Part shown: piece after piece, positions 2,592 through 30,323 of the stretch
Layout: every line of letters starts with the position of its first letter
Position numbering within the stretch: the stretch's first letter is position 1
Source of the DNA: a virus
Lineage: Duplodnaviria > Caudoviricetes
IMG/VR virus record: IMGVR_UViG_3300028837_001169
Location: 1-30,323 of that record
Strand: one strand, 5' to 3'
DNA: 30,323 nucleotides
The notes under the pieces: generated by a model
The model's database searches: none
Told to the model about the DNA's origin: nothing
Seen by the model: only the letters and a program-made list of their open reading frames with translations
Position numbers and translations under genes: made by a program

Positions 2592-4553
2592 ATGACCGAA
2601 ATAATAACATCAACCGAGACGGATTGTTCATGGCTTATAGATGCATTTTCTCGCAGGCCTACAAAACATAGAAATATTACTATCCCTGAATATTCAGAGA
2701 CAACGATAATCCCCGCCGGAAAGTACAGGGATGCATTATTCCGGCTCGACCGTGCACCTTACGTGCGCGAACCATTACAAAAACTTTCCCCTGGCTCAAA
2801 TACGCAGGAAGTAAGATTGATGTTTCCAGCGCAAAGCAGCAAAACGACAATAGGCGAGATTGTTGTAATGTATTATATCGAAATTGTGCCCTCGGAAATT
2901 CTCCATGTAAACTCAAACGCAGATCAATGCCGTATATGGTTTCAAACTCGCATATCTCCACGGGCTATGCAAAAAGGAATAGAATTCCGCGCACAGGTGG
3001 AAGGCACAAGAAGGTCAGGAAATACATTATATTCAAAAGAATTTGATGGCGGGAATCTCGATCTTGCATCCGCCCTCTCATCTGCCCAGCTTGCCTCAAA
3101 AACAAAAAGGATAATTCATGCCTGTGAAATCGACAGATGGCGTGAAGAGTTAGGCTCGGAGGGTCTTACATGGGAGATTATGTACGCCAGGACTCAGGCA
3201 TGGGGAGATCAAAGAAAAATACTTGCAGAGTCTACACCAGGCACATATGAGGCAAGCCTTATATGGCGATTATACGAAGAAGGAGATCAACGTCTTTTCT
3301 GGGTACAATGTCCTATATGCAAAGAACCACAAACATTGGAATTATATGCTGAAAAAAAATACGGTCTCTATTATGAAACAAAAGCCGGTATAATAGACAC
3401 AAAGTCAATCTGTTATATTTGTCCATCCTGTGAGAAATCCTGGAAAGAATACATGAAACATTATGTACTTATGACAGGGAACTGGAGAAAACAAATAGAT
3501 TCAAAAAATCCTTATATTTCGAGTTATCATATTAATGGCATTTACTCCCCTTTTTTGGGATGGGAAGAAATAGCAAGAAAACACAATAAGATCAAAAATA
3601 ATTATATATTGCAAAAAAGTTTTGACAATCTTGTTATGGGAAGACCTTCGAAAGAAACGGGTGTACGTCCGAAAGCAGAAAAGGTGATTGAACTTAAGGG
3701 CATTTATCGTCCTGGAATAGTACCGGAAGGTGTATTGTTTTTGACGATAGGCATGGATGTACAGCGCGGATCAAAAGGGGACAAAAAAAATCCGCCCCGG
3801 GTAGAGCTGGAAATATTGGGTACCGGACCCGGATATCGCACATGGTCAATCGATTATCTGAGATTTGAGGGAGAAGTGACGAATCCGCACGGCGGCGCAT
3901 GGGAAAAATTGCACAAATGGGCAGTTGATACCGGGCTGGTATGGAAGCGAAAAAGCGATCTTAAAGAATTCCGGCCTATGCTGATTTTCATTGATTCAGG
4001 CGATGGATATCTTACCAGTACCGTATATACATTTACCCAGCGCTGGAAAAATACATTTCCCATCAAGGGAACCTCTTCCTTGAAATCACCAGAAAAAGGC
4101 GATCCAATCACAAAAGAAAATTTTTCCCGATATCGGTATACACTGATTGCCGAAGGGTTGATATTATATACAATAGCTACGAATTTCTACAAAACAATGA
4201 TATATAATAACCTCAAAATTAAGCGTATTCCAGGAGAAATACAGGCACCCGGATTCTGCGATTTTCCCTTTGAATACGGACAAAAAGGGTCAAAATATCA
4301 ATATTATTTCTCCATGCTCACGGCTGAGGAAAAATTGAAAGACGGAAGATTTGACAATGGCGGCAGACGTAACGAAGCTCTTGACTGTAGAGTTTATGCC
4401 CTATGTGCCGCAGATGTCTATCTTTATGGTCTTGTAAAAAAGCTTAGAGACGCCATGAAAGGAAAGATGAAACGGGAGGATATCGAAAAAATTAATCGGA
4501 AATGGATAATTGAAAAGCTAAAAAAAGAAATAGGTACTCCTCTGGGCTTTTGA
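2592..4553 (+). CDS. terminase large subunit, lambda GpA family
   Basis: APYVREP, AQxxKT, ESTP, GDQRLFWVQCPIC, CPSC, LTIGMDVQ, FIDSG, RNEALDCRVYA motifs. Confidence 0.93.
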   Translation: MTEIITSTETDCSWLIDAFSRRPTKHRNITIPEYSETTIIPAGKYRDALFRLDRAPYVREPLQKLSPGSNTQEVRLMFPAQSSKTTIGEIVVMYYIEIVPSEILHVNSNADQCRIWFQTRISPRAMQKGIEFRAQVEGTRRSGNTLYSKEFDGGNLDLASALSSAQLASKTKRIIHACEIDRWREELGSEGLTWEIMYARTQAWGDQRKILAESTPGTYEASLIWRLYEEGDQRLFWVQCPICKEPQTLELYAEKKYGLYYETKAGIIDTKSICYICPSCEKSWKEYMKHYVLMTGNWRKQIDSKNPYISSYHINGIYSPFLGWEEIARKHNKIKNNYILQKSFDNLVMGRPSKETGVRPKAEKVIELKGIYRPGIVPEGVLFLTIGMDVQRGSKGDKKNPPRVELEILGTGPGYRTWSIDYLRFEGEVTNPHGGAWEKLHKWAVDTGLVWKRKSDLKEFRPMLIFIDSGDGYLTSTVYTFTQRWKNTFPIKGTSSLKSPEKGDPITKENFSRYRYTLIAEGLILYTIATNFYKTMIYNNLKIKRIPGEIQAPGFCDFPFEYGQKGSKYQYYFSMLTAEEKLKDGRFDNGGRRNEALDCRVYALCAADVYLYGLVKKLRDAMKGKMKREDIEKINRKWIIEKLKKEIGTPLGF

Positions 4554-4584
4554 AATGCCAGGGTACCTGAACGGCAAAGACGCC

Positions 4585-4600
4585 TGGCATACTATTTGCA
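4585..4600 (+). promoter_or_regulatory. sigma-54 (-24/-12) promoter P1
   Basis: TGGCAT-ACTAT-TTGCA matches TGGCAY-N5-TTGCW; predicted +1 near 4611-4612 coincides with an ATG. Confidence 0.65.
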
Positions 4601-4611
4601 TGTATATTAAT

Positions 4612-4878
4612 ATGAAAATATATGACCCAAATAAACGAAAAGCAAGATACAGAAAAAACCGGAAAAAAGAACTCAAAAAGGCAAAAGAAAGATATCGAGA
4701 TAACCGGGAAAAGCTCAAAGCAGATGCTCTGGCCCGATATTATATAGAGCACGAAAAAAATAAAAAGAAAAATCGGGACCGAATGAGAAAAAAAAGGGCA
4801 CTTGAAAAGCAAAAACGTTCAACGGTAAAAATTGATGTGTCAAAAAAACACAATTCTAAAAAAATAGAAGAAAAGTAG
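4612..4878 (+). CDS. highly basic helical protein (possibly nucleic-acid binding), probably leaderless
   Basis: MKIYDPNKRKARYRKNRKKELKKAKERYRDNREKLK..; in frame with ORF 4555..4878; no SD. Confidence 0.55.
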   Translation: MKIYDPNKRKARYRKNRKKELKKAKERYRDNREKLKADALARYYIEHEKNKKKNRDRMRKKRALEKQKRSTVKIDVSKKHNSKKIEEK

Positions 4879-4936
4879 TGTCAAAAAAACACAAATAGTA
4901 TTATTTTGTAGACATTTTACTGTATCAAAAAAACAC
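4837..4936. promoter_or_regulatory. three GT(G/A)TCAAAAAAACAC repeats, candidate enhancer (UAS) sites
   Basis: Copies at 4837-4851, 4878-4892 and 4922-4936 (starts 41 and 44 bp apart), GTGT..ACAC dyad, 70-170 bp upstream of P2. Confidence 0.65.
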
Positions 4937-5004
4937 ACCTTTTTCTCTTTATCTTGTTAGATGGTAAAATCAAGCAATATAAGCACTTCTTTTCTGTGTT
5001 TTCT

Positions 5005-5020
5005 TGGCACGGATCTTGCA
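5005..5020 (+). promoter_or_regulatory. sigma-54 (-24/-12) promoter P2
   Basis: (T)TGGCAC-GGATC-TTGCA, a perfect consensus in intergenic DNA; predicted +1 near 5031. Confidence 0.8.
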
Positions 5021-5030
5021 TCTATATATA

Positions 5031-5220
5031 TAGGTAAGAAAAACCTACGGAGTCTTTGACAGACTGGCTCCGGCTTAAACCTGAGGGTAGTAACCCAGGG
5101 GGAATTGAAACCGGGGAATTGAGAGAGCACACAAAGGACTACGGGTAGCGCACTTAAATACATCACATCAGCCGTTCGACTCGGCACAGTCCTATACCCT
5201 GCATAGCAGGGAAAACAAAC
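5031..5220 (+). ncRNA. putative structured leader RNA with tRNA-like subdomain
   Basis: Consecutive hairpins 5031-5047, 5048-5072, 5080-5099, a T-arm/acceptor-like fold 5135-5194, and hairpin 5197-5211. Confidence 0.45.
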
Positions 5221-5240
5221 AAACCTTGAGGAGGGTGATT

Positions 5241-5462
5241 ATGAAGACATTAAACGAAACAAGAAGAGAACAAGTTGAGAGAGAAGCAAAGATTTTTTTG
5301 ATCGACCAAATAATTGAACAGTCGGGAGGACTTATTTCTAAGGAAAATGCACCTGATTATATAATAGAATTTGGTTGGCATAAAAATTGTGTATATGCCT
5401 CGATTGATGCCCTAAATAATCCTGTTGTAATTGCAACTTTAAAAAAGGGCGTTTTATATTAA
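5241..5462 (+). CDS. small cassette protein 1 (MKTLNE..), unknown function
   Basis: SD GAGGAGGG then ATG 5241. Confidence 0.7.
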   Translation: MKTLNETRREQVEREAKIFLIDQIIEQSGGLISKENAPDYIIEFGWHKNCVYASIDALNNPVVIATLKKGVLY

Positions 5463-5470
5463 AAAATGGA

Positions 5471-5569
5471 GAGGAGGGGACCTGGCCGGACCCTCCTCAT
5501 TTTACCCGGGTGTCCTGCGGGGTGCCTGGGCGAAATTGCCGGCGGGCTTACGCAAGTAGGAGGGTGAAT
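5471..5569 (+). repeat. intergenic structured repeat, copy A
   Basis: Identical to 7231-7326 outside the central hairpin; three hairpins plus SD. Confidence 0.9.
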
Positions 5570-5776
5570 ATGAGAACTAATTTAACAAGAAAAGAAAGAA
5601 AACAGATTAAAAAGTATAATGATTGTATCAGACCGATTGATAAAATCATGAGAAGAAACAATACATGGTATGTACTTTTTTGTGATTCGTATCAGTATGA
5701 AGAGGCTGAGTATGAGGAGGGTGAATATGAAGACATTACCAACATGGAAAACAGACAGAATCCTACAGATTGTTAA
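5570..5776 (+). CDS. small cassette protein 2 (MRTNLTRKE..), chimeric C-terminus
   Basis: SD then ATG 5570; 5593-5712 is identical to the reverse complement of 30204-30323. Confidence 0.65.
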   Translation: MRTNLTRKERKQIKKYNDCIRPIDKIMRRNNTWYVLFCDSYQYEEAEYEEGEYEDITNMENRQNPTDC

Positions 5777-5936
5777 AGGAATAAAAAATCAACCTATAGG
5801 AATTCAAGATTTTGACACAAGGGATACCGAAACCATTAATGCTCTTATTGAAAAAAAAATAGTGAAAATAGAAAATAATAAGCCTTTTCTTACAAAAAAA
5901 GGTGAAAAGCTTTTATCTAAAATAAAAGCAAAATAA
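5727..5936 (+). CDS. small cassette protein 3 (MKTLPT..), winged-helix-like
   Basis: SD GAGGAGGG then ATG 5727; INALIEKKIVKIENNKPFLTKKGEKLL resembles a wHTH wing. Confidence 0.65.
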   Translation: MKTLPTWKTDRILQIVKGIKNQPIGIQDFDTRDTETINALIEKKIVKIENNKPFLTKKGEKLLSKIKAK

Positions 5937-6044
5937 CTATATCCGGGGACCTTCCCGGTATGTCTGATAAGCGGTGCGTCCGGTCGATGAGTCGATCACG
6001 TTCAGGCGGGAGTACTAATAACCGAAACCTTGAGGAGGGCAATT

Positions 6045-6254
6045 ATGACAAAGATAAAATATAAAGGAGAAATATTATATAAATGTTTTTTTTCACCAGG
6101 GCAGATATATTATTATGCATCTTGTTTGCCCATGCCATGTGGGTTTGGACATGTGAAAACGCTTGAGGAAGCATATCAACAAAAAAAAAGATTAATGGCC
6201 TGGGCAGATCAACAGGAAATCGACTTACGCAGATGGAGAGGAGAAGAGATATGA
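6045..6254 (+). CDS. small cassette protein 4, unknown function
   Basis: AAACCTTGAGGAGGG junction then ATG 6045. Confidence 0.65.
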   Translation: MTKIKYKGEILYKCFFSPGQIYYYASCLPMPCGFGHVKTLEEAYQQKKRLMAWADQQEIDLRRWRGEEI

Positions 6255-7219
6255 AGACATTAACAAAGAATGAAAGAAACTTAATAGAAATAAGCGAAAA
6301 TTTTGACTTGCTTAAAGATTTTGAAATTAAAATTTTTAAAGAAAAAAAATATGTCAGGATTTCCAGAAATAAATATATCTGGGAATATTTTTCTTTTACG
6401 GATTTTCCAGACTTGCCAGTAAAGGCAAGTGTAGAAGAAATAAAAAATCATATAAAAATGTATCTTTTTTTTCTTGAGGAACAAAGATATAAAGACATGG
6501 AAAGCAAACTTACAAAATATGAAAAAAAGTATATTGCACAAATTGATTTTCAAAAATTGTTTGATCTAGAAGATAAGATGATTTCTGAAAACAAATATAG
6601 GTCTATACTATTGTTAATGACAAACCACCGAATTCGTATAGGTTGCTGGGGGTACATAAATATGTACCCAGAAGAATTCGGTATATATTACGAGTCATCA
6701 CGTTTTTATTCTTATCCGAAAAACGGTGTGTTCTCAACATTGACCCACCGCCAAGATTATTCATATAAAAACGAACTATTCACTTTTGAAAGAAGAAAAA
6801 AAATGATGATTTATGAAATAATTTTAGAACGCTGCCTAAATAAAAGGTACAAGAAAAAAAGGAAAAACAGGGAAGCAATGATATATTTTCTCTTAAAAAG
6901 AAATCTTTGCAAACCAATACTGTTAAAATATGAAAAATTCGAAAAATATTGTAAATCAAAACACATTAAAACAACAAAAGAAACATTTCAATCTATAACC
7001 ACAGATATATTTCAAAATGTTTTTAGTTCTACAGACAAATCAGAATTATCTATAGGCGGAGAGATCATCCTTGACGCTCCTATGTTATTTGATAATCACG
7101 TCGAACGAAGAAATTTCGATTCAAAAATAGACAAATGTGATTTTAAAGGATATGTTCCTGCAGGAACCTGGTTAACAATGGAGGGGAAATATTACTTTCA
7201 AAAGATGAATAATAGTTAA
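6251..7219 (+). CDS. cassette protein 5 (MKTLTK.., 322 aa), unknown function, very AT-rich
   Basis: ATGAAGACATTA start with ATGA coupling to the previous stop. Confidence 0.7.
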   Translation: MKTLTKNERNLIEISENFDLLKDFEIKIFKEKKYVRISRNKYIWEYFSFTDFPDLPVKASVEEIKNHIKMYLFFLEEQRYKDMESKLTKYEKKYIAQIDFQKLFDLEDKMISENKYRSILLLMTNHRIRIGCWGYINMYPEEFGIYYESSRFYSYPKNGVFSTLTHRQDYSYKNELFTFERRKKMMIYEIILERCLNKRYKKKRKNREAMIYFLLKRNLCKPILLKYEKFEKYCKSKHIKTTKETFQSITTDIFQNVFSSTDKSELSIGGEIILDAPMLFDNHVERRNFDSKIDKCDFKGYVPAGTWLTMEGKYYFQKMNNS

Positions 7220-7230
7220 TTTATTTTCCC

Positions 7231-7328
7231 GAGGAGGGGACCTGGCCGGACCCTCCTCATTTTACCCGGCAGCCCCATGGGGCTGCCGGGTAAAATTGCC
7301 GGCGGGCTTACGCAAGTAGGAGGGTGCC
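7231..7328 (+). repeat. intergenic structured repeat, copy B
   Basis: Contains a perfect 38-bp palindrome at 7259-7296. Confidence 0.9.
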
Positions 7329-7358
7329 ATGAAAACAATAAGAATATGCAAAAAATAA
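7329..7358 (+). CDS. 9-codon minigene or cassette remnant MKTIRICKK
   Basis: Strong SD AGGAGGG, ATG 7329, TAA 7356-7358. Confidence 0.35.
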   Translation: MKTIRICKK

Positions 7359-7387
7359 GTCCCTTTGCTCTCTCGGATCTATGTGGG

Positions 7388-7412
7388 AAGCCGGGGAAAC
7401 CCGGCTTTTTTT
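7388..7412 (+). terminator. intrinsic terminator closing the cassette island
   Basis: AAGCCGGG-GAAA-CCCGGCTT followed by a T-run. Confidence 0.8.
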
Positions 7413-7413
7413 C

Positions 7414-7442
7414 TTGACATAAAAATAAACTTATGCTATTTT
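7414..7442 (+). promoter_or_regulatory. sigma-70 promoter for the head genes
   Basis: TTGACA-17bp-TATTTT with extended TG. Confidence 0.65.
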
Positions 7443-7448
7443 TGTAGT

Positions 7449-7736
7449 ATGGCTTGTCTTACCGTCGAGAGGCGAATTGAATTAGAAGAAAGATTACAAA
7501 AAAAAATAGCTCAACTCGAAAAATTGTATGAAGCATTTGACAATTTTGATAATGTCGAACAATACAAATTTCAATCAGCAGAAACAATGCAGCAAACAAA
7601 ATATCGAGGCATAAAAGAATTGCAGGACGCTATCGATCGGCTTGAAGCATCAATTGACAGAATTAATCGGATTCTTGGAAATACCGGACTAAAAAATATA
7701 GTTCTAAGGCGCCGGGGGTATTGTGGCACTATTTGA
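7449..7736 (+). CDS. head-tail joining protein, gpW-like
   Basis: Helix-hairpin-helix pattern (QYKFQS..TKYRGIKELQDAIDRLE) directly before the portal; ATG 7449. Confidence 0.7.
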   Translation: MACLTVERRIELEERLQKKIAQLEKLYEAFDNFDNVEQYKFQSAETMQQTKYRGIKELQDAIDRLEASIDRINRILGNTGLKNIVLRRRGYCGTI

Positions 7737-12323: not shown

Positions 12324-13940
12324 ATGCACAAGATATATGCTTTTTTAGAGTCTGAACTTATAAGCTATCTGGAAAAAATTGAAAATGCTACGCCAGAAGA
12401 AATAAAAGCAGCCGAAAGTATTTTTTCAGATAAACCACTTCCAAATATTCTTACAATTAAAGATGGAAAAGCACAAATTTTGATTCATGGTCCGCTTACA
12501 CAAAAGGGCCCTCCTCCCATTGCAAGATTTTTCGGACTTGATGGGACCGGATATATCCAAATAATTGAAGCAATCAATAATATTCCTGAAAATATAGAAA
12601 AAATTGAATTACTCATGAATACTCCAGGCGGAGAAGTGCTTGGGGTTGATAATGTTTTTCAAGCAGTGACAGCGCTTTACGAAAAAAAGGAAGTGATCGC
12701 CATTAACCAGGGTATGATTGCATCGGCAGGATACTGGATAGCCTCGGCAGCGTCACGAATTATTAGCGAATCTCCAGTGAATCTTACGGGATCCATAGGA
12801 GTTGTTATAATCGCAGTTGATACAAAAAAATTTGAGGAAAAAATCGGAATACGTGTTGTCACGGTGGTTTCGCGCAATGCACCCGAAAAAGTACCGGATA
12901 TTTCAAAAAAATCAGGGATTCGGACATTACAGGAAATGGCCGATTCTTTGGAACGAGTTTTTATGAGTCGGATTTCAGAGGGCCGCAATCTTCCTGTAGA
13001 ACATATTGAGAAATTTTATGGACGTGGAAAAGTACTTGTTTCTTTAGATCCGAATGGAACTGACGCAATTGACGTAAAAATGATTGACGAAGTCATAACA
13101 GCAAAACAGGATGAAAAAGAAAAAGAATATGACAATGAAAATGATACAATTTATGGTATGGTTTCAGAGTTTTTTGATCCACTTGCACCTTATGAAAACG
13201 AACACTCGGCACGTCTTTTAAGCCCGACAGTTTCAAAAATCCGTGTCCGTCGTACTTCCGGAAGCGGAAAAGGAACCGTACAGGGCGTAAAAATTCCCGA
13301 ATCAATTGATATTATATGGTTCGTTCAAAAAATAGAAGAAAAGGAAGTACCCAGGGCACAGGCTTTAAGATTCCCCGTTTCAACCTGGACGGAATCAGAG
13401 GCCCGTGATTGGATAAAAAAGAAAAAATTAAAAACAATTCTTTTTGAACCTGCAAAAAAAACAAAAGCTGAAAATATAAAATCCCCCGCAGATAGTGCGG
13501 GAATCAATAAACAGGAGGTTATTATGCCAACATTAAAAAACTTTCTGGTAGAAAATCCCGCCGCCCAGGTCGAATATAATCAGGCTCTGGAAGAAAAATA
13601 CAAAGCGGGGGTTGAAACCGGAAAACAAGAGATTAAGGGAGATGTAAAAAAGATTTCTCCTTTTCTTACGTCAGAAACTTATGATTCTGCCATCAAGCAA
13701 ACAGCCGTGAAAGTATTGACCGGGGAAATAGGAATTGATGCTTTTCTTGCCGTAGTCTCAATTGAAGATGCAAGGAAAGAAAAGGAGAAATCTTCCGATG
13801 CAAAAAAGGAAACTAAAAAAATCGGCAATACCCCGGGACAACAGCAACAAACTGGCGGAAATGAAACCGGGGATATAAAAACAGAAGCCGATTTCCAAGC
13901 AGAAATTACAAAAATTAAAGCACAGGAAGGGGGCAAATAA
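12324..13940 (+). CDS. prohead protease (S49/gpC-like) fused to an extra domain and the scaffold
   Basis: NTPGGEV, ASAGYWIASAA, GSIGV motifs. Confidence 0.9.
   Translation: MHKIYAFLESELISYLEKIENATPEEIKAAESIFSDKPLPNILTIKDGKAQILIHGPLTQKGPPPIARFFGLDGTGYIQIIEAINNIPENIEKIELLMNTPGGEVLGVDNVFQAVTALYEKKEVIAINQGMIASAGYWIASAASRIISESPVNLTGSIGVVIIAVDTKKFEEKIGIRVVTVVSRNAPEKVPDISKKSGIRTLQEMADSLERVFMSRISEGRNLPVEHIEKFYGRGKVLVSLDPNGTDAIDVKMIDEVITAKQDEKEKEYDNENDTIYGMVSEFFDPLAPYENEHSARLLSPTVSKIRVRRTSGSGKGTVQGVKIPESIDIIWFVQKIEEKEVPRAQALRFPVSTWTESEARDWIKKKKLKTILFEPAKKTKAENIKSPADSAGINKQEVIMPTLKNFLVENPAAQVEYNQALEEKYKAGVETGKQEIKGDVKKISPFLTSETYDSAIKQTAVKVLTGEIGIDAFLAVVSIEDARKEKEKSSDAKKETKKIGNTPGQQQQTGGNETGDIKTEADFQAEITKIKAQEGGK
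13524..13940 (+). CDS. scaffolding protein from an in-frame internal start (Nu3-like)
   Basis: Strong SD CAGGAGG before an in-frame ATG at 13524. Confidence 0.7.
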   Translation: MPTLKNFLVENPAAQVEYNQALEEKYKAGVETGKQEIKGDVKKISPFLTSETYDSAIKQTAVKVLTGEIGIDAFLAVVSIEDARKEKEKSSDAKKETKKIGNTPGQQQQTGGNETGDIKTEADFQAEITKIKAQEGGK

Positions 13941-27101: not shown

Positions 27102-27894
27102 TATTTCCCGCAGACTACTTAATGCACTATTACCGGATGGACCTCCATGGTATCCGAAAAAAAATGAAGATTTTGATAAATTCCTCAATGGCCTTTCTCT
27201 TAATATCGAAAATTTATTGTTGTACCTCGAGCAATTAAGTAATGTAAGAAATCCTTATAATATACCAATTGAATTACTTCCCGATCTTGAAAAAGAATAC
27301 GGAATAATTACAAAAAATAATATCTCAATTGAAACACGGCGGATGCAGCTCGCTGTAAAAATATATACCAATGGAGGCACTGGAAGTCCGGATGATCTAC
27401 AAAATGCTTTACGCGGTGCCGGATTTGATGTTTATGTTCATCCAAATGATCCGGCGATTGATCCGGCTATTTTGTTGGATCAAAATTTTCAAGTAACAAT
27501 TGGAGATCCGGTTTCTGCTTATATCGGAGATCCGAACGCTTATTTCGGAAAATTTGGCGGTTATCTTTTGGTTAATGGTTCCATATTTACCAGGCGGCCA
27601 AAATATTTAGGTATTGGAGATCCGGTTTTTGCTTATATCGGAGATCCGAATGCACAAATTGGTTATTTTTTAGGTTTAGAAATTAATGAAAAAACATATA
27701 ATATCCCCACAGATTCTGATACATGGCCTTTTATTTTTTTTGTAGGTGGACAGGCTGCGAGGGGAGGATCCGGGGAATTGATATCGATAGAGAATGCAGA
27801 AATTCCGGCTGAAAGACAATCTGAATTTGAAAATATAATATTACGGATTAAGCCTGTCTTTACGTGGGCTGGGATAATAGTAACGTATGTTTAA
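27088..27894 (+). CDS. baseplate wedge protein (DUF2313/Mu gp48-like)
   Basis: LNALLPDGPPW, ELLPDLEKEYG, RIKPVFT. Confidence 0.78.
   Translation: MSQPNISRRLLNALLPDGPPWYPKKNEDFDKFLNGLSLNIENLLLYLEQLSNVRNPYNIPIELLPDLEKEYGIITKNNISIETRRMQLAVKIYTNGGTGSPDDLQNALRGAGFDVYVHPNDPAIDPAILLDQNFQVTIGDPVSAYIGDPNAYFGKFGGYLLVNGSIFTRRPKYLGIGDPVFAYIGDPNAQIGYFLGLEINEKTYNIPTDSDTWPFIFFVGGQAARGGSGELISIENAEIPAERQSEFENIILRIKPVFTWAGIIVTYV
27499..27653 (+). repeat. 41-bp intragenic direct repeat (IGDPVxAYIGDPNA)
   Basis: 27499-27539 vs 27613-27653, 2 mismatches. Confidence 0.85.
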
Positions 27895-29828: not shown

Positions 29829-30043
29829 ACTTTGTCCTCCTTTAATTTGCCGAAATTTTGTATTTCAATTTCATGTTTGATTTTTTCTATAAGCATTTTC
29901 CGATAAGCGACCGGCGGTACACGCTTTCCTTGTTCCCATGCCTGATAGGTACTAAGGGAAAATCCTAAAAATTTTGACATAGATTCCTGGGTATATCCTA
30001 TCCTTTTCCGATAGCTTTTCAATTGATCGCTAAATGATTTCAT
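29825..30043 (-). CDS. XRE-family HTH regulator
   Basis: LKSYRKRIGYTQESMSKFLGFSLSTYQAWEQGKRVP. Confidence 0.88.
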   Translation of the reverse strand: MKSFSDQLKSYRKRIGYTQESMSKFLGFSLSTYQAWEQGKRVPPVAYRKMLIEKIKHEIEIQNFGKLKEDKV

Positions 30044-30144
30044 TCCCTTTCTCTCCTCTTACGTTTCTGCCCGCCGGCAATTTTACCCAGCAGCCCCATG
30101 GGGCGACCGGGTAAAATGAGGAGAGTTTACGTAATGCCCTCCTC
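30044..30144 (-). repeat. intergenic structured repeat, copy C (inverted)
   Basis: Minus strand reads GAGGAGGG-11nt-CTCTCCTC ATTTTACCCGG..GGGTAAAAT TGCCGGCGGGC, then SD and ATG. Confidence 0.88.
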
Positions 30145-30163: not shown

Positions 30164-30323
30164 TTAGTTTAAATTTAACTCCTCACAAATCATATCAATC
30201 ATGTACTCAGCCTCTTCATACTGATACGAATCACAAAAAAGTACATACCATGTATTGTTTCTTCTCATGATTTTATCAATCGGTCTGATACAATCATTAT
30301 ACTTTTTAATCTGTTTTCTTTCT
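30164..30323 (-). CDS. 3' part of a paralog of cassette protein 2 (runs off the window)
   Basis: ERKQIKKYNDCIRPIDK..EEAEYMIDMICEELNLN*; stop at 30164-30166. Confidence 0.75.
   Translation of the reverse strand, partial: ERKQIKKYNDCIRPIDKIMRRNNTWYVLFCDSYQYEEAEYMIDMICEELNLN

Follow-up and report, generated by a model that had tools for sequence, protein, structure and literature searches.

Early sites of the phages SPO1 and SP82 are stems processed by RNase III. Clustered hammerhead ribozymes flank single phage genes and cleave in vitro, according to the account of Perreault et al. 2011 (PMC3088659), while the purpose of self-cleaving ribozymes in bacteria and phages is described as still open (PMC6765202). 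Here we analyze IMG/VR record IMGVR_UViG_3300028837_001169, of which the whole stretch of 30,323 nt (CheckV completeness 61%) is referred to as the window. It contains three copies of an element of approximately 100 nt with three hairpins: copy A (5471-5566), copy B (7231-7326) and copy C (minus strand, 30144-30051). Sequence comparison indicates that the element is real, is kept at the RNA level, is new to Rfam and has a narrow distribution; its function we infer from context, mainly from predicted ribozymes in neighbouring spacers.

In every copy the element is located between a stop codon and the next Shine-Dalgarno sequence (SD) and ATG, among small accessory genes. The distance to the upstream stop codon is 8, 11, 19, 10, 19, 7 and 8 nt in the seven copies measured, and 14 nt in record L081. 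Hairpin 1 has 8 pairs and a loop of 11-12 nt in seven of the eight distinct sequences that form our conservation set. It is directly abutted by hairpin 2 (37-38 nt), after which hairpin 3 consists of three G-C pairs around GGCG with an outer pair that is U-A in two sequences, A-U in two and U-U in four. A linker of variable length (8-13 nt) then leads to the SD. An earlier note on this DNA had listed copies A, B and C, and their coordinates and pair counts are as it described; this includes the perfect palindrome of hairpin 2 in copy B and the substitutions in copy C, which are mostly to G-U. For hairpin 2 of copy A the description holds for the C-G to G-C swap relative to B and for the single mismatch (A-C), but of the six G-U pairs the sixth would close a 2-nt loop, so that the physical count is five. 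Also the stretch TTGCCGGCGGGC had been called invariant. Its second base in fact varies together with its partner in the homologues, and the stretch forms a 4-bp hairpin, namely hairpin 3.

The variant hairpin of copy A is genuine and not an assembly error, since an 83-nt contig from the sequencing runs equals positions 5480-5562 without differences, at single-copy depth in each of two runs from different samples. The sense strand gives folding z-scores of -2.45 for A, -5.14 for B and -3.14 for C.

Pairing in hairpin 2 is well maintained: all six distinct hairpin 2 sequences form 16-17 pairs, and 94.9% of the cells are paired. Across the eight sequences nine pairs are invariant, three vary on one side and four on both sides. 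The covariation argument uses helices 2 and 3 only; the counts for helix 1 (five pairs changed on both sides) were discarded, as they stem from just two rows of the alignment, one of which is shifted while the other has a replaced 5' part. The score of the whole structure exceeds that of 500 out of 500 shuffles, a control that ignores relatedness and uses an alignment fitted to the structure. Furthermore, the sense strand folds better by 4.9-8.2 kcal/mol in all five imperfect hairpins, which are not independent of each other. Selection on the structure of the sense-strand RNA is therefore supported by the sequences, through the compensatory pairs in further copies together with the better folding of this strand. 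The earlier note had reached the same conclusion from the G-U pairs, but that argument is weak when taken alone: the distinct non-Watson-Crick (WC) pair types comprise six G-U, two A-C and one other, and a ratio of 6:2 corresponds to p=0.14. Transcription-linked deamination would yield the same G-U bias. A U-G plus an A-C pair at positions 5-6 is common to five of the eight sequences, and in copy B the 3' arm alone departs from the common form in the lower stem. The perfect palindrome of copy B may thus be a derived state; template switching would produce a one-arm change of this kind.

Outside the window the element is found in all four JGI contigs of one assembly, with one copy identical to A, three new full-length variants, one copy with a replaced 5' part and one cut by the contig end. 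One further copy is present in G001 (L082), a complete siphovirus of 39.5 kb with head and tail genes unlike those of the window. When 77 sources (492,961 bases) were searched with a covariance model built from seven copies, a check proposed in the earlier note, 10 matches reached E<1e-10; all are previously found members, and the next full-length match scores 23 bits. Pattern scans of IMG/VR recovered true copies at 2 of 19 loci, at one locus and at 1 of 4 loci, all in the same phage, and at 3 of 38 loci, two of them in the same phage and one new. Among 17 loci of portal relatives the element was seen only in the same phage. In GTDB neither of two matches was true (one lies inside a coding gene, the other is a hairpin-only match of 15.8 bits), none of 23 whole virus records matched at E <0.04, nor did any of five further records, and BLAST of annotated phages and plasmids gave no match to the element. 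No Rfam family matches it, including twister, twister sister, pistol, hatchet, hairpin and RAGATH; the sole match is mir-8, by chance (31.8 bits against a cut-off of 47), and the copies in L078, L079 and L081 have none. A known repetitive extragenic palindrome (REP), miniature inverted-repeat transposable element (MITE) or terminator family, a match to which the earlier note had named as counting against its reading, was found neither in Rfam and GTDB nor by the Y1 search and the terminator scan. We found no description of the element in the literature, which is not searchable by sequence. The family is small and its members are closely related, which limits every conservation argument.

Spacer type J (L080 69-147, minus strand) has a short hairpin followed by an imperfect stem of 17 positions and is possibly a distant relative of the element (21.9 bits, E 0.055 with a covariance model of the element). 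Two other candidates, L054 and L063, were rejected because their likeness to hairpin 1 is an artefact of how the search pattern was constructed. These two GC-rich contigs hold a long structured leader with compensatory changes that is unrelated to the element (L054 1900-2095, L063 770-960), with a weak M23 match (E 0.034).

Spacers in the same kind of operon are predicted to contain self-cleaving ribozymes. Three of these resemble the ribozyme of hepatitis delta virus (HDV): one in the window, between copies A and B, and two on the minus strand of G001, at 12717 and 12460. In the window spacer P1, P2, P3, P1.1 and the C at J4/2 are all predicted to be present, with a hairpin inserted in L3. 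Comparison of the three sequences shows a two-sided change at one P1 pair and one-sided changes at a further P1 pair and at one P2 pair. L3 measures 20 nt, including an inserted hairpin of 16 nt, in the window and in one G001 copy, against 7 nt in the other; the window spacer accordingly deviates from the 7-nt L3 of drz-Mtgn-1, as threaded from the sequence given in PMC10879173. Further copies of the window's HDV-like spacer, with T6002C, occur in the run contigs. A loose HDV descriptor finds 0-3 matches per shuffled genome. A stricter version finds three matches against none in 20 shuffles, a contrast that is flattered by tuning on those very matches. The Rfam model HDV-F-prausnitzii matches nowhere, controls included, and a loose pattern scan of IMG/VR for the spacer gave none alike among 120 of at least approximately 580 stretches.

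Type III hammerheads are predicted in G001 and in two more phages, G002 and G003, which were brought in by a scan with a shared gene-start motif (15 loci). The hammerhead descriptor yields four matches in 170,225 bases, compared to three in 20 shuffles, and all four lie directly before this motif. At both G002 sites Rfam Hammerhead_3 matches weakly (E 0.0014 and 0.023, below the cut-off), and the pseudoknot between loops I and II covaries between phages. There are oddities as well: a U-C pair at the base of stem II in G001, a CCGAUGA core in G003 and a branched stem II in G002. The gene-start motif (window 5221 and 6025; G001, G002, G003 and G005) closes most spacers and follows the early promoter. 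As these phages differ in their head and tail genes, the shared motif suggests that they have a host in common and that it serves as a cross-over point. G003 also has another repeated GC-rich hairpin spacer (L217 6160-6230 and 6570-6640).

The element shares its slot with these predicted ribozymes. A promoter-led operon of G001 has four consecutive spacers, in order a near-canonical minimal HDV-like ribozyme, an HDV-like ribozyme with the L3 hairpin (the homologue of the window spacer), a type III hammerhead and the element; in the window the HDV-like fold stands between copies A and B. The sister spacers also follow the plan of the three copies: stop codon, protective hairpin, cutting unit and SD. 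Spacers of G002 and G003 show this as a hairpin like hairpin 1, a short GC-rich hairpin, the hammerhead and the SD. In every predicted ribozyme the expected cleavage site directly follows a stable hairpin; this would provide the upstream message with a hairpin at its 3' end and the downstream one with a fold at its 5' end.

Given the ribozymes predicted in the sister spacers, a processing site is the best supported of the three candidates raised in the earlier note (an RNase III-type processing site, a cis-regulatory RNA and an attC-like site). On the basis of this context we put at about even the chances that the element is a cassette for mRNA processing and end protection that is cut by a host nuclease. 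A long mRNA would be cut at the element into protected single-gene pieces, with cutting in or beside the fixed-length hairpin 2. Hairpin 1 would then form the 3' end of the upstream message, and hairpin 3 would stand at the start of the downstream one, before the SD. The cut would also separate the anti-SD arm of hairpin 1 from its SD partner, locking the downstream gene 'on'. Copies would spread via recombination between shared cassette sequences, reshuffling the genes. As to the nuclease, the more likely candidate, though a tentative one, is RNase III, for which hairpin 2 would be stacked on hairpin 1; a single-strand endonuclease, with the hairpins halting exonucleases, is less likely. According to PMC1540722 RNase III needs a helix of no fewer than 11 pairs next to its cleavage site (the cut lying 6 nt in, with 11 pairs above it), a length that hairpin 2 reaches. 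Scored with the E. coli table and thresholds of PMC6212723 (Table S4), which may not represent the enzyme of the host, hairpin 2 alone ranges from -23.3 to -32.5 (one of seven above -25.5, high; all seven above -33.8, moderate) and, if stacked on hairpin 1, from -18.9 to -22.9. The features of hairpin 2 are thus compatible with nuclease processing.

A number of observations weigh against this reading. When the pairs of hairpin 2 are permuted, 14-70% of the resulting stems reach an equal RNase III score; the stacked geometry, moreover, is an assumption. Positions 7-9 and 11 of the stem are invariably C-G/G-C, pairs that PMC1540722 and PMC6212723 describe as disfavoured by the E. coli enzyme beside its cleavage site. 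The cut consensus of Mini-III, reported in PMC5141509 as WSSW (ACCU), is missed by one pair in the invariant stem A-C-C-C. One lower-stem pair of hairpin 2 is mismatched in five of the eight sequences, and copy B precedes just a 9-codon open reading frame (ORF). The ribozyme neighbours are predictions below Rfam cut-offs. Some of them may be inactive: L3 departs from the standard form in two HDV-like folds out of three, and the core is altered in two hammerheads out of four. Finally, all eight element sequences come from few related sources and share an invariant stretch of 17 nt; their conservation is in part recent copying.

A cis-regulatory RNA, the second candidate, would be a translational switch without cleavage: the anti-SD arm has two alternative partners, its own 5' arm in the on-state and the downstream SD in the off-state, and the trigger could for instance be a ribosome that finishes the upstream gene and melts hairpin 1. 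Arm and SD are complementary over 8 nt in A, B, C and L078 and over 7 nt in G001 (five of the seven distinct full copies), and they covary once, a C to T change in the arm being accompanied by G to A in the SD. However, the match is weak in two copies, with 6 nt in L079 and an interruption in L081 (predicted off-state 0.13 even without the 5' arm), and the SDs of these phages are all alike, so that some match of the arm is expected. In predicted folding, the off-state share amounts to 1.0 in C, 0.36 in B and 0.30 in L078, and to 0.84-1.0 in seven of eight copies when the 5' arm is removed, whereas five of the eight are predicted to be in the on-state at 0.99-1.0. In addition, L079:6-93 is without the arm yet retains hairpins 2 and 3, and a switch leaves the fixed length of hairpin 2 unexplained. 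We regard this function as doubtful.

It is improbable that the element is a new class of self-cleaving ribozyme doing the same job as the hammerheads and HDV-like ribozymes of the sister spacers. The identical slot and plan would fit, as would the invariant 17-nt stretch and the invariant hairpin with its GGCG loop, and PMC5737381 describes earlier ribozyme classes as coming from this kind of context. Against it, descriptors find neither the hammerhead core (CUGANGA, GAAA, NUH site and three stems) nor the HDV fold, and no ribozyme family of Rfam matches at E<=1. The three helices directly adjoin one another, leaving hardly any conserved unpaired nucleotides, and by eye no pseudoknot is common to all copies; loop-tail pseudoknots are limited to single subgroups, and a partner for an HDV P1 is seen only in the loops of A, B and L079. 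Threading the element by eye on the consensus structures of twister, pistol, hatchet and twister sister failed. Only 3 of 36 RAGATH motifs proved to be ribozymes, as stated in PMC11061315.

The loop of hairpin 1 allows an extended form of this idea. A perfect 6-nt loop palindrome with the same sequence occurs in C, L078, L081 and G001, against a background of 1.7% of 6-mers in these genomes, whereas the loops of A, B and L079 are palindromic by wobble pairs only. Upstream of the hammerheads in G002 and G003 we find a hairpin with the geometry of hairpin 1, which position and likeness suggest to be its homologue; here a second palindrome sequence (twice in G002) and a third (in G003) appear, all in the same 2+6+1 layout. 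In G002 the upstream stop codon lies inside this loop. By analogy with the dimerization initiation site of HIV-1 such loops may allow copies to kiss. A self-cleaving element interchangeable with hammerhead and HDV-like ribozymes, of which the kissing loops pair the ends of gene cassettes for cleavage, RNA-circle ligation or coordinated release, nevertheless has little probability in our estimate.

There is also a small chance that the repeats act mainly at the DNA level, driving gene shuffling as in PeSL cassettes, with a structure that is incidental or the decayed remnant of a ribozyme cassette. The gene after copy A is not the same in the window as in L080, gene X is followed by varying spacers, and one copy has its 5' flank swapped at the base of hairpin 2. 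Moreover, the 3' half of the element aligns with the minimal HDV-like spacer minus its core at a score of 13.9, with 0 of 500 shuffles as high; the boundaries were chosen post hoc, and with longer ends 8 of 500 shuffles score as high. The element may thus descend from a ribozyme cassette. On the other hand, cross-overs are mostly located at the shared SD-ATG and not in the element, no promoter-like site occurs within A or B, and selection on RNA is indicated both by the compensatory changes and by the way the sense strand folds. Recombination is compatible with the processing cassette as a side effect.

Very unlikely is an attenuator or intrinsic terminator made of hairpin 1 and the AUUUU behind it. 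The stem is GC-rich, has 8 bp and is followed by four U, but with a loop of 11-12 nt and no more than 4 U it is absent from the terminator scan list, the same hairpin occurs in G002 without a U-run, and no promoter-like site follows to restart transcription. Core sites of attC are RYYYAAC and GTTRRRY, and although hairpin 2 is a long imperfect palindrome between gene cassettes, an attC-like recombination site or REP/MITE-like mobile element is hardly credible: no such pair frames any of seven elements examined, no tyrosine recombinase, serine recombinase or Y1 transposase is present in four of four phage records (one complete, three incomplete), GTDB returned no true copy, and the variants keep G-U pairs rather than extrahelical bases.

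The positions of all features are given in Table 1.

Table 1. Features of the element, of its sister spacers and of their surroundings; positions refer to the window unless a record is named.
Feature	Position	Strand	Remarks
Copy A, hairpin 1: SD-like 5' arm (5471-5478), 12-nt loop, anti-SD 3' arm (5491-5498)	5471..5498	+	8 nt after stop of ORF 5241-5462
Copy A, hairpin 2: 17 pairs (11 WC, 5 G-U, 1 A-C), 4-nt loop	5499..5536	+	supported by run contigs
Copy A, hairpin 3: 3 G-C pairs around GGCG loop	5537..5548	+	outer pair U-A/A-U in other copies
Copy A, SD and ATG of gene X	5558..5572	+	SD complementary to 3' arm of hairpin 1 over 8 nt
Part of gene X, duplicated inverted at 30204-30323	5593..5712	+	two gene copies; depth 62 versus 32-35
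Assembly join, 130 nt missing (end of gene X and structured spacer D)	5712..5713	.	present in IMG/VR assembly L020 and contigs of runs X1, X3, X4
Hairpin directly upstream of predicted HDV-like cleavage site (sister spacer E)	5943..5958	+	
Predicted minimal HDV-like ribozyme, between A and B	5962..6024	+	P1 6 bp, P2 4 bp, P3 3 bp, P1.1, candidate catalytic C 6015
Copy B, hairpin 1, identical to A	7231..7258	+	11 nt after stop of ORF 6251-7219
Copy B, hairpin 2, perfect 38-nt palindrome	7259..7296	+	
Copy B, hairpin 3, SD and ATG of 9-codon ORF	7297..7331	+	
Terminator-like hairpin with T-run, end of A-B operon	7388..7411	+	from sequence; not in terminator scan list
Copy C, hairpin 1: 11-nt loop, perfect 6-nt palindrome	30118..30144	-	19 nt after stop of second gene X copy
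Copy C, hairpin 2: 14 WC, 2 G-U, 1 C-U mismatch	30080..30117	-	
Copy C, hairpin 3, SD and ATG of helix-turn-helix (HTH) regulator gene (30043-29825)	30041..30079	-	
Hairpin-1 loop palindromes	window 30126-30136; L225 619, 1254; L226 9386	- (window)	
Predicted type III hammerheads	G001 (L082) 12185; G002 (L225) 678, 1308; G003 (L226) 9450	- (G001)	loop I/II pseudoknot

Annotation with PHROGs shows the window to be derived from a myovirus, with genes for terminase, lambda-type portal, protease, capsid, sheath, tape measure and baseplate. Relatives of its capsid and sheath are less than 30% identical. The sequencing runs with contigs that cover the region of the element are DNA runs of marine sediment and the subsurface, and no RNA run was among those listed for it. 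A series of small orphan genes that separates terL (2592-4553) from the head genes (starting at 7449) contains copies A and B. Copy C precedes the HTH gene, in a short operon on the minus strand at the right end. The slot from terL to the gpW-like and portal genes (window 4555-7420) is a variable accessory operon; in the related phage G005 (L221 1-650) it holds two short genes and no structured spacer. A TTGACA promoter-like site for the head genes (7414) is found just after the terminator-like hairpin. The identity of 5593-5712 with the inverted last 120 nt is due to a second copy of gene X. An inversion of 5713-30203 was rejected, as the gene is present twice by depth and has its own promoter in L078. 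Spacer D, absent from the window (L020 96-225), is structured (z -3.7); its weak match to the hairpin-ribozyme model of Rfam (E 2.5) was treated as chance, since a competing helix covers the matched region. A leader at 5030-5240 has several hairpins, one of them with a T-loop-like GTTCGA, and shares its 3' plan with spacer D. Two 64-nt repeats that are 80% alike lie inside a baseplate/tail gene (27499-27676), and the window has no tRNA or tmRNA.

Comparison with described systems places the element as a new motif among ribozyme-punctuated phage operons and RAGATH-like RNAs. As in the hammerhead operons described in PMC3088659, structured RNAs stand between small variable genes of one transcript, and the hammerheads predicted in the sister spacers have the loop I/II pseudoknot; in contrast to that description, the element is without hammerhead core and one slot mixes hammerhead, HDV-like and other spacer types. 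With the RAGATH motifs, as presented in PMC11061315, it has in common that it is a structured intergenic RNA in a ribozyme-rich context, but it matches no Rfam model, and the link is here a slot-for-slot substitution and not only one of neighbouring gene classes. The window's HDV-like spacer and two G001 spacers thread the fold of the minimal HDV-like or theta phage ribozymes (Kienbeck et al. 2024, PMC10879173), sharing the 6-bp P1, the lack of a P4 stem and the C at the start of J4/2. Relative to the ribozymes covered there, these spacers are not beside a tRNA, come from sediment instead of gut and in two of three cases have the L3 hairpin; copies A, B and C do not fit this fold. The RNase III stem R1.1 of T7 and its minimal form, as given in PMC1540722, are likewise intercistronic hairpins of approximately 1.5 turns upstream of an SD, and the minimal substrate geometry of 6 nt, 11 pairs and a tetraloop is also that of the element. 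PeSL cassettes of T4-type phages (Arbiol et al. 2010, PMC2839356) resemble it as repeated stem-loops among non-essential genes with gene shuffling, although by that account they have a promoter and a terminator, neither of which is clearly present in the element. The dimerization initiation site of HIV-1, in the description of PMC7357161, has an apical loop with a 6-nt palindrome followed by A, as does hairpin 1 of the C-type copies, G002 and G003; differences are that hairpin 1 belongs to the mRNA of a bacterial virus, that A and B are palindromic by wobble only and that the 5' flanking bases are not always purines. If none of the spacers cuts, the element would be an ordinary stabilising hairpin cassette. 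If they work, the HDV-like fold with an L3 hairpin and the covarying kissing-type loop in phage mRNA would be new variants. These operons would offer a natural swap experiment, in which a hammerhead, an HDV-like fold or the element occupies one slot before exchangeable genes.

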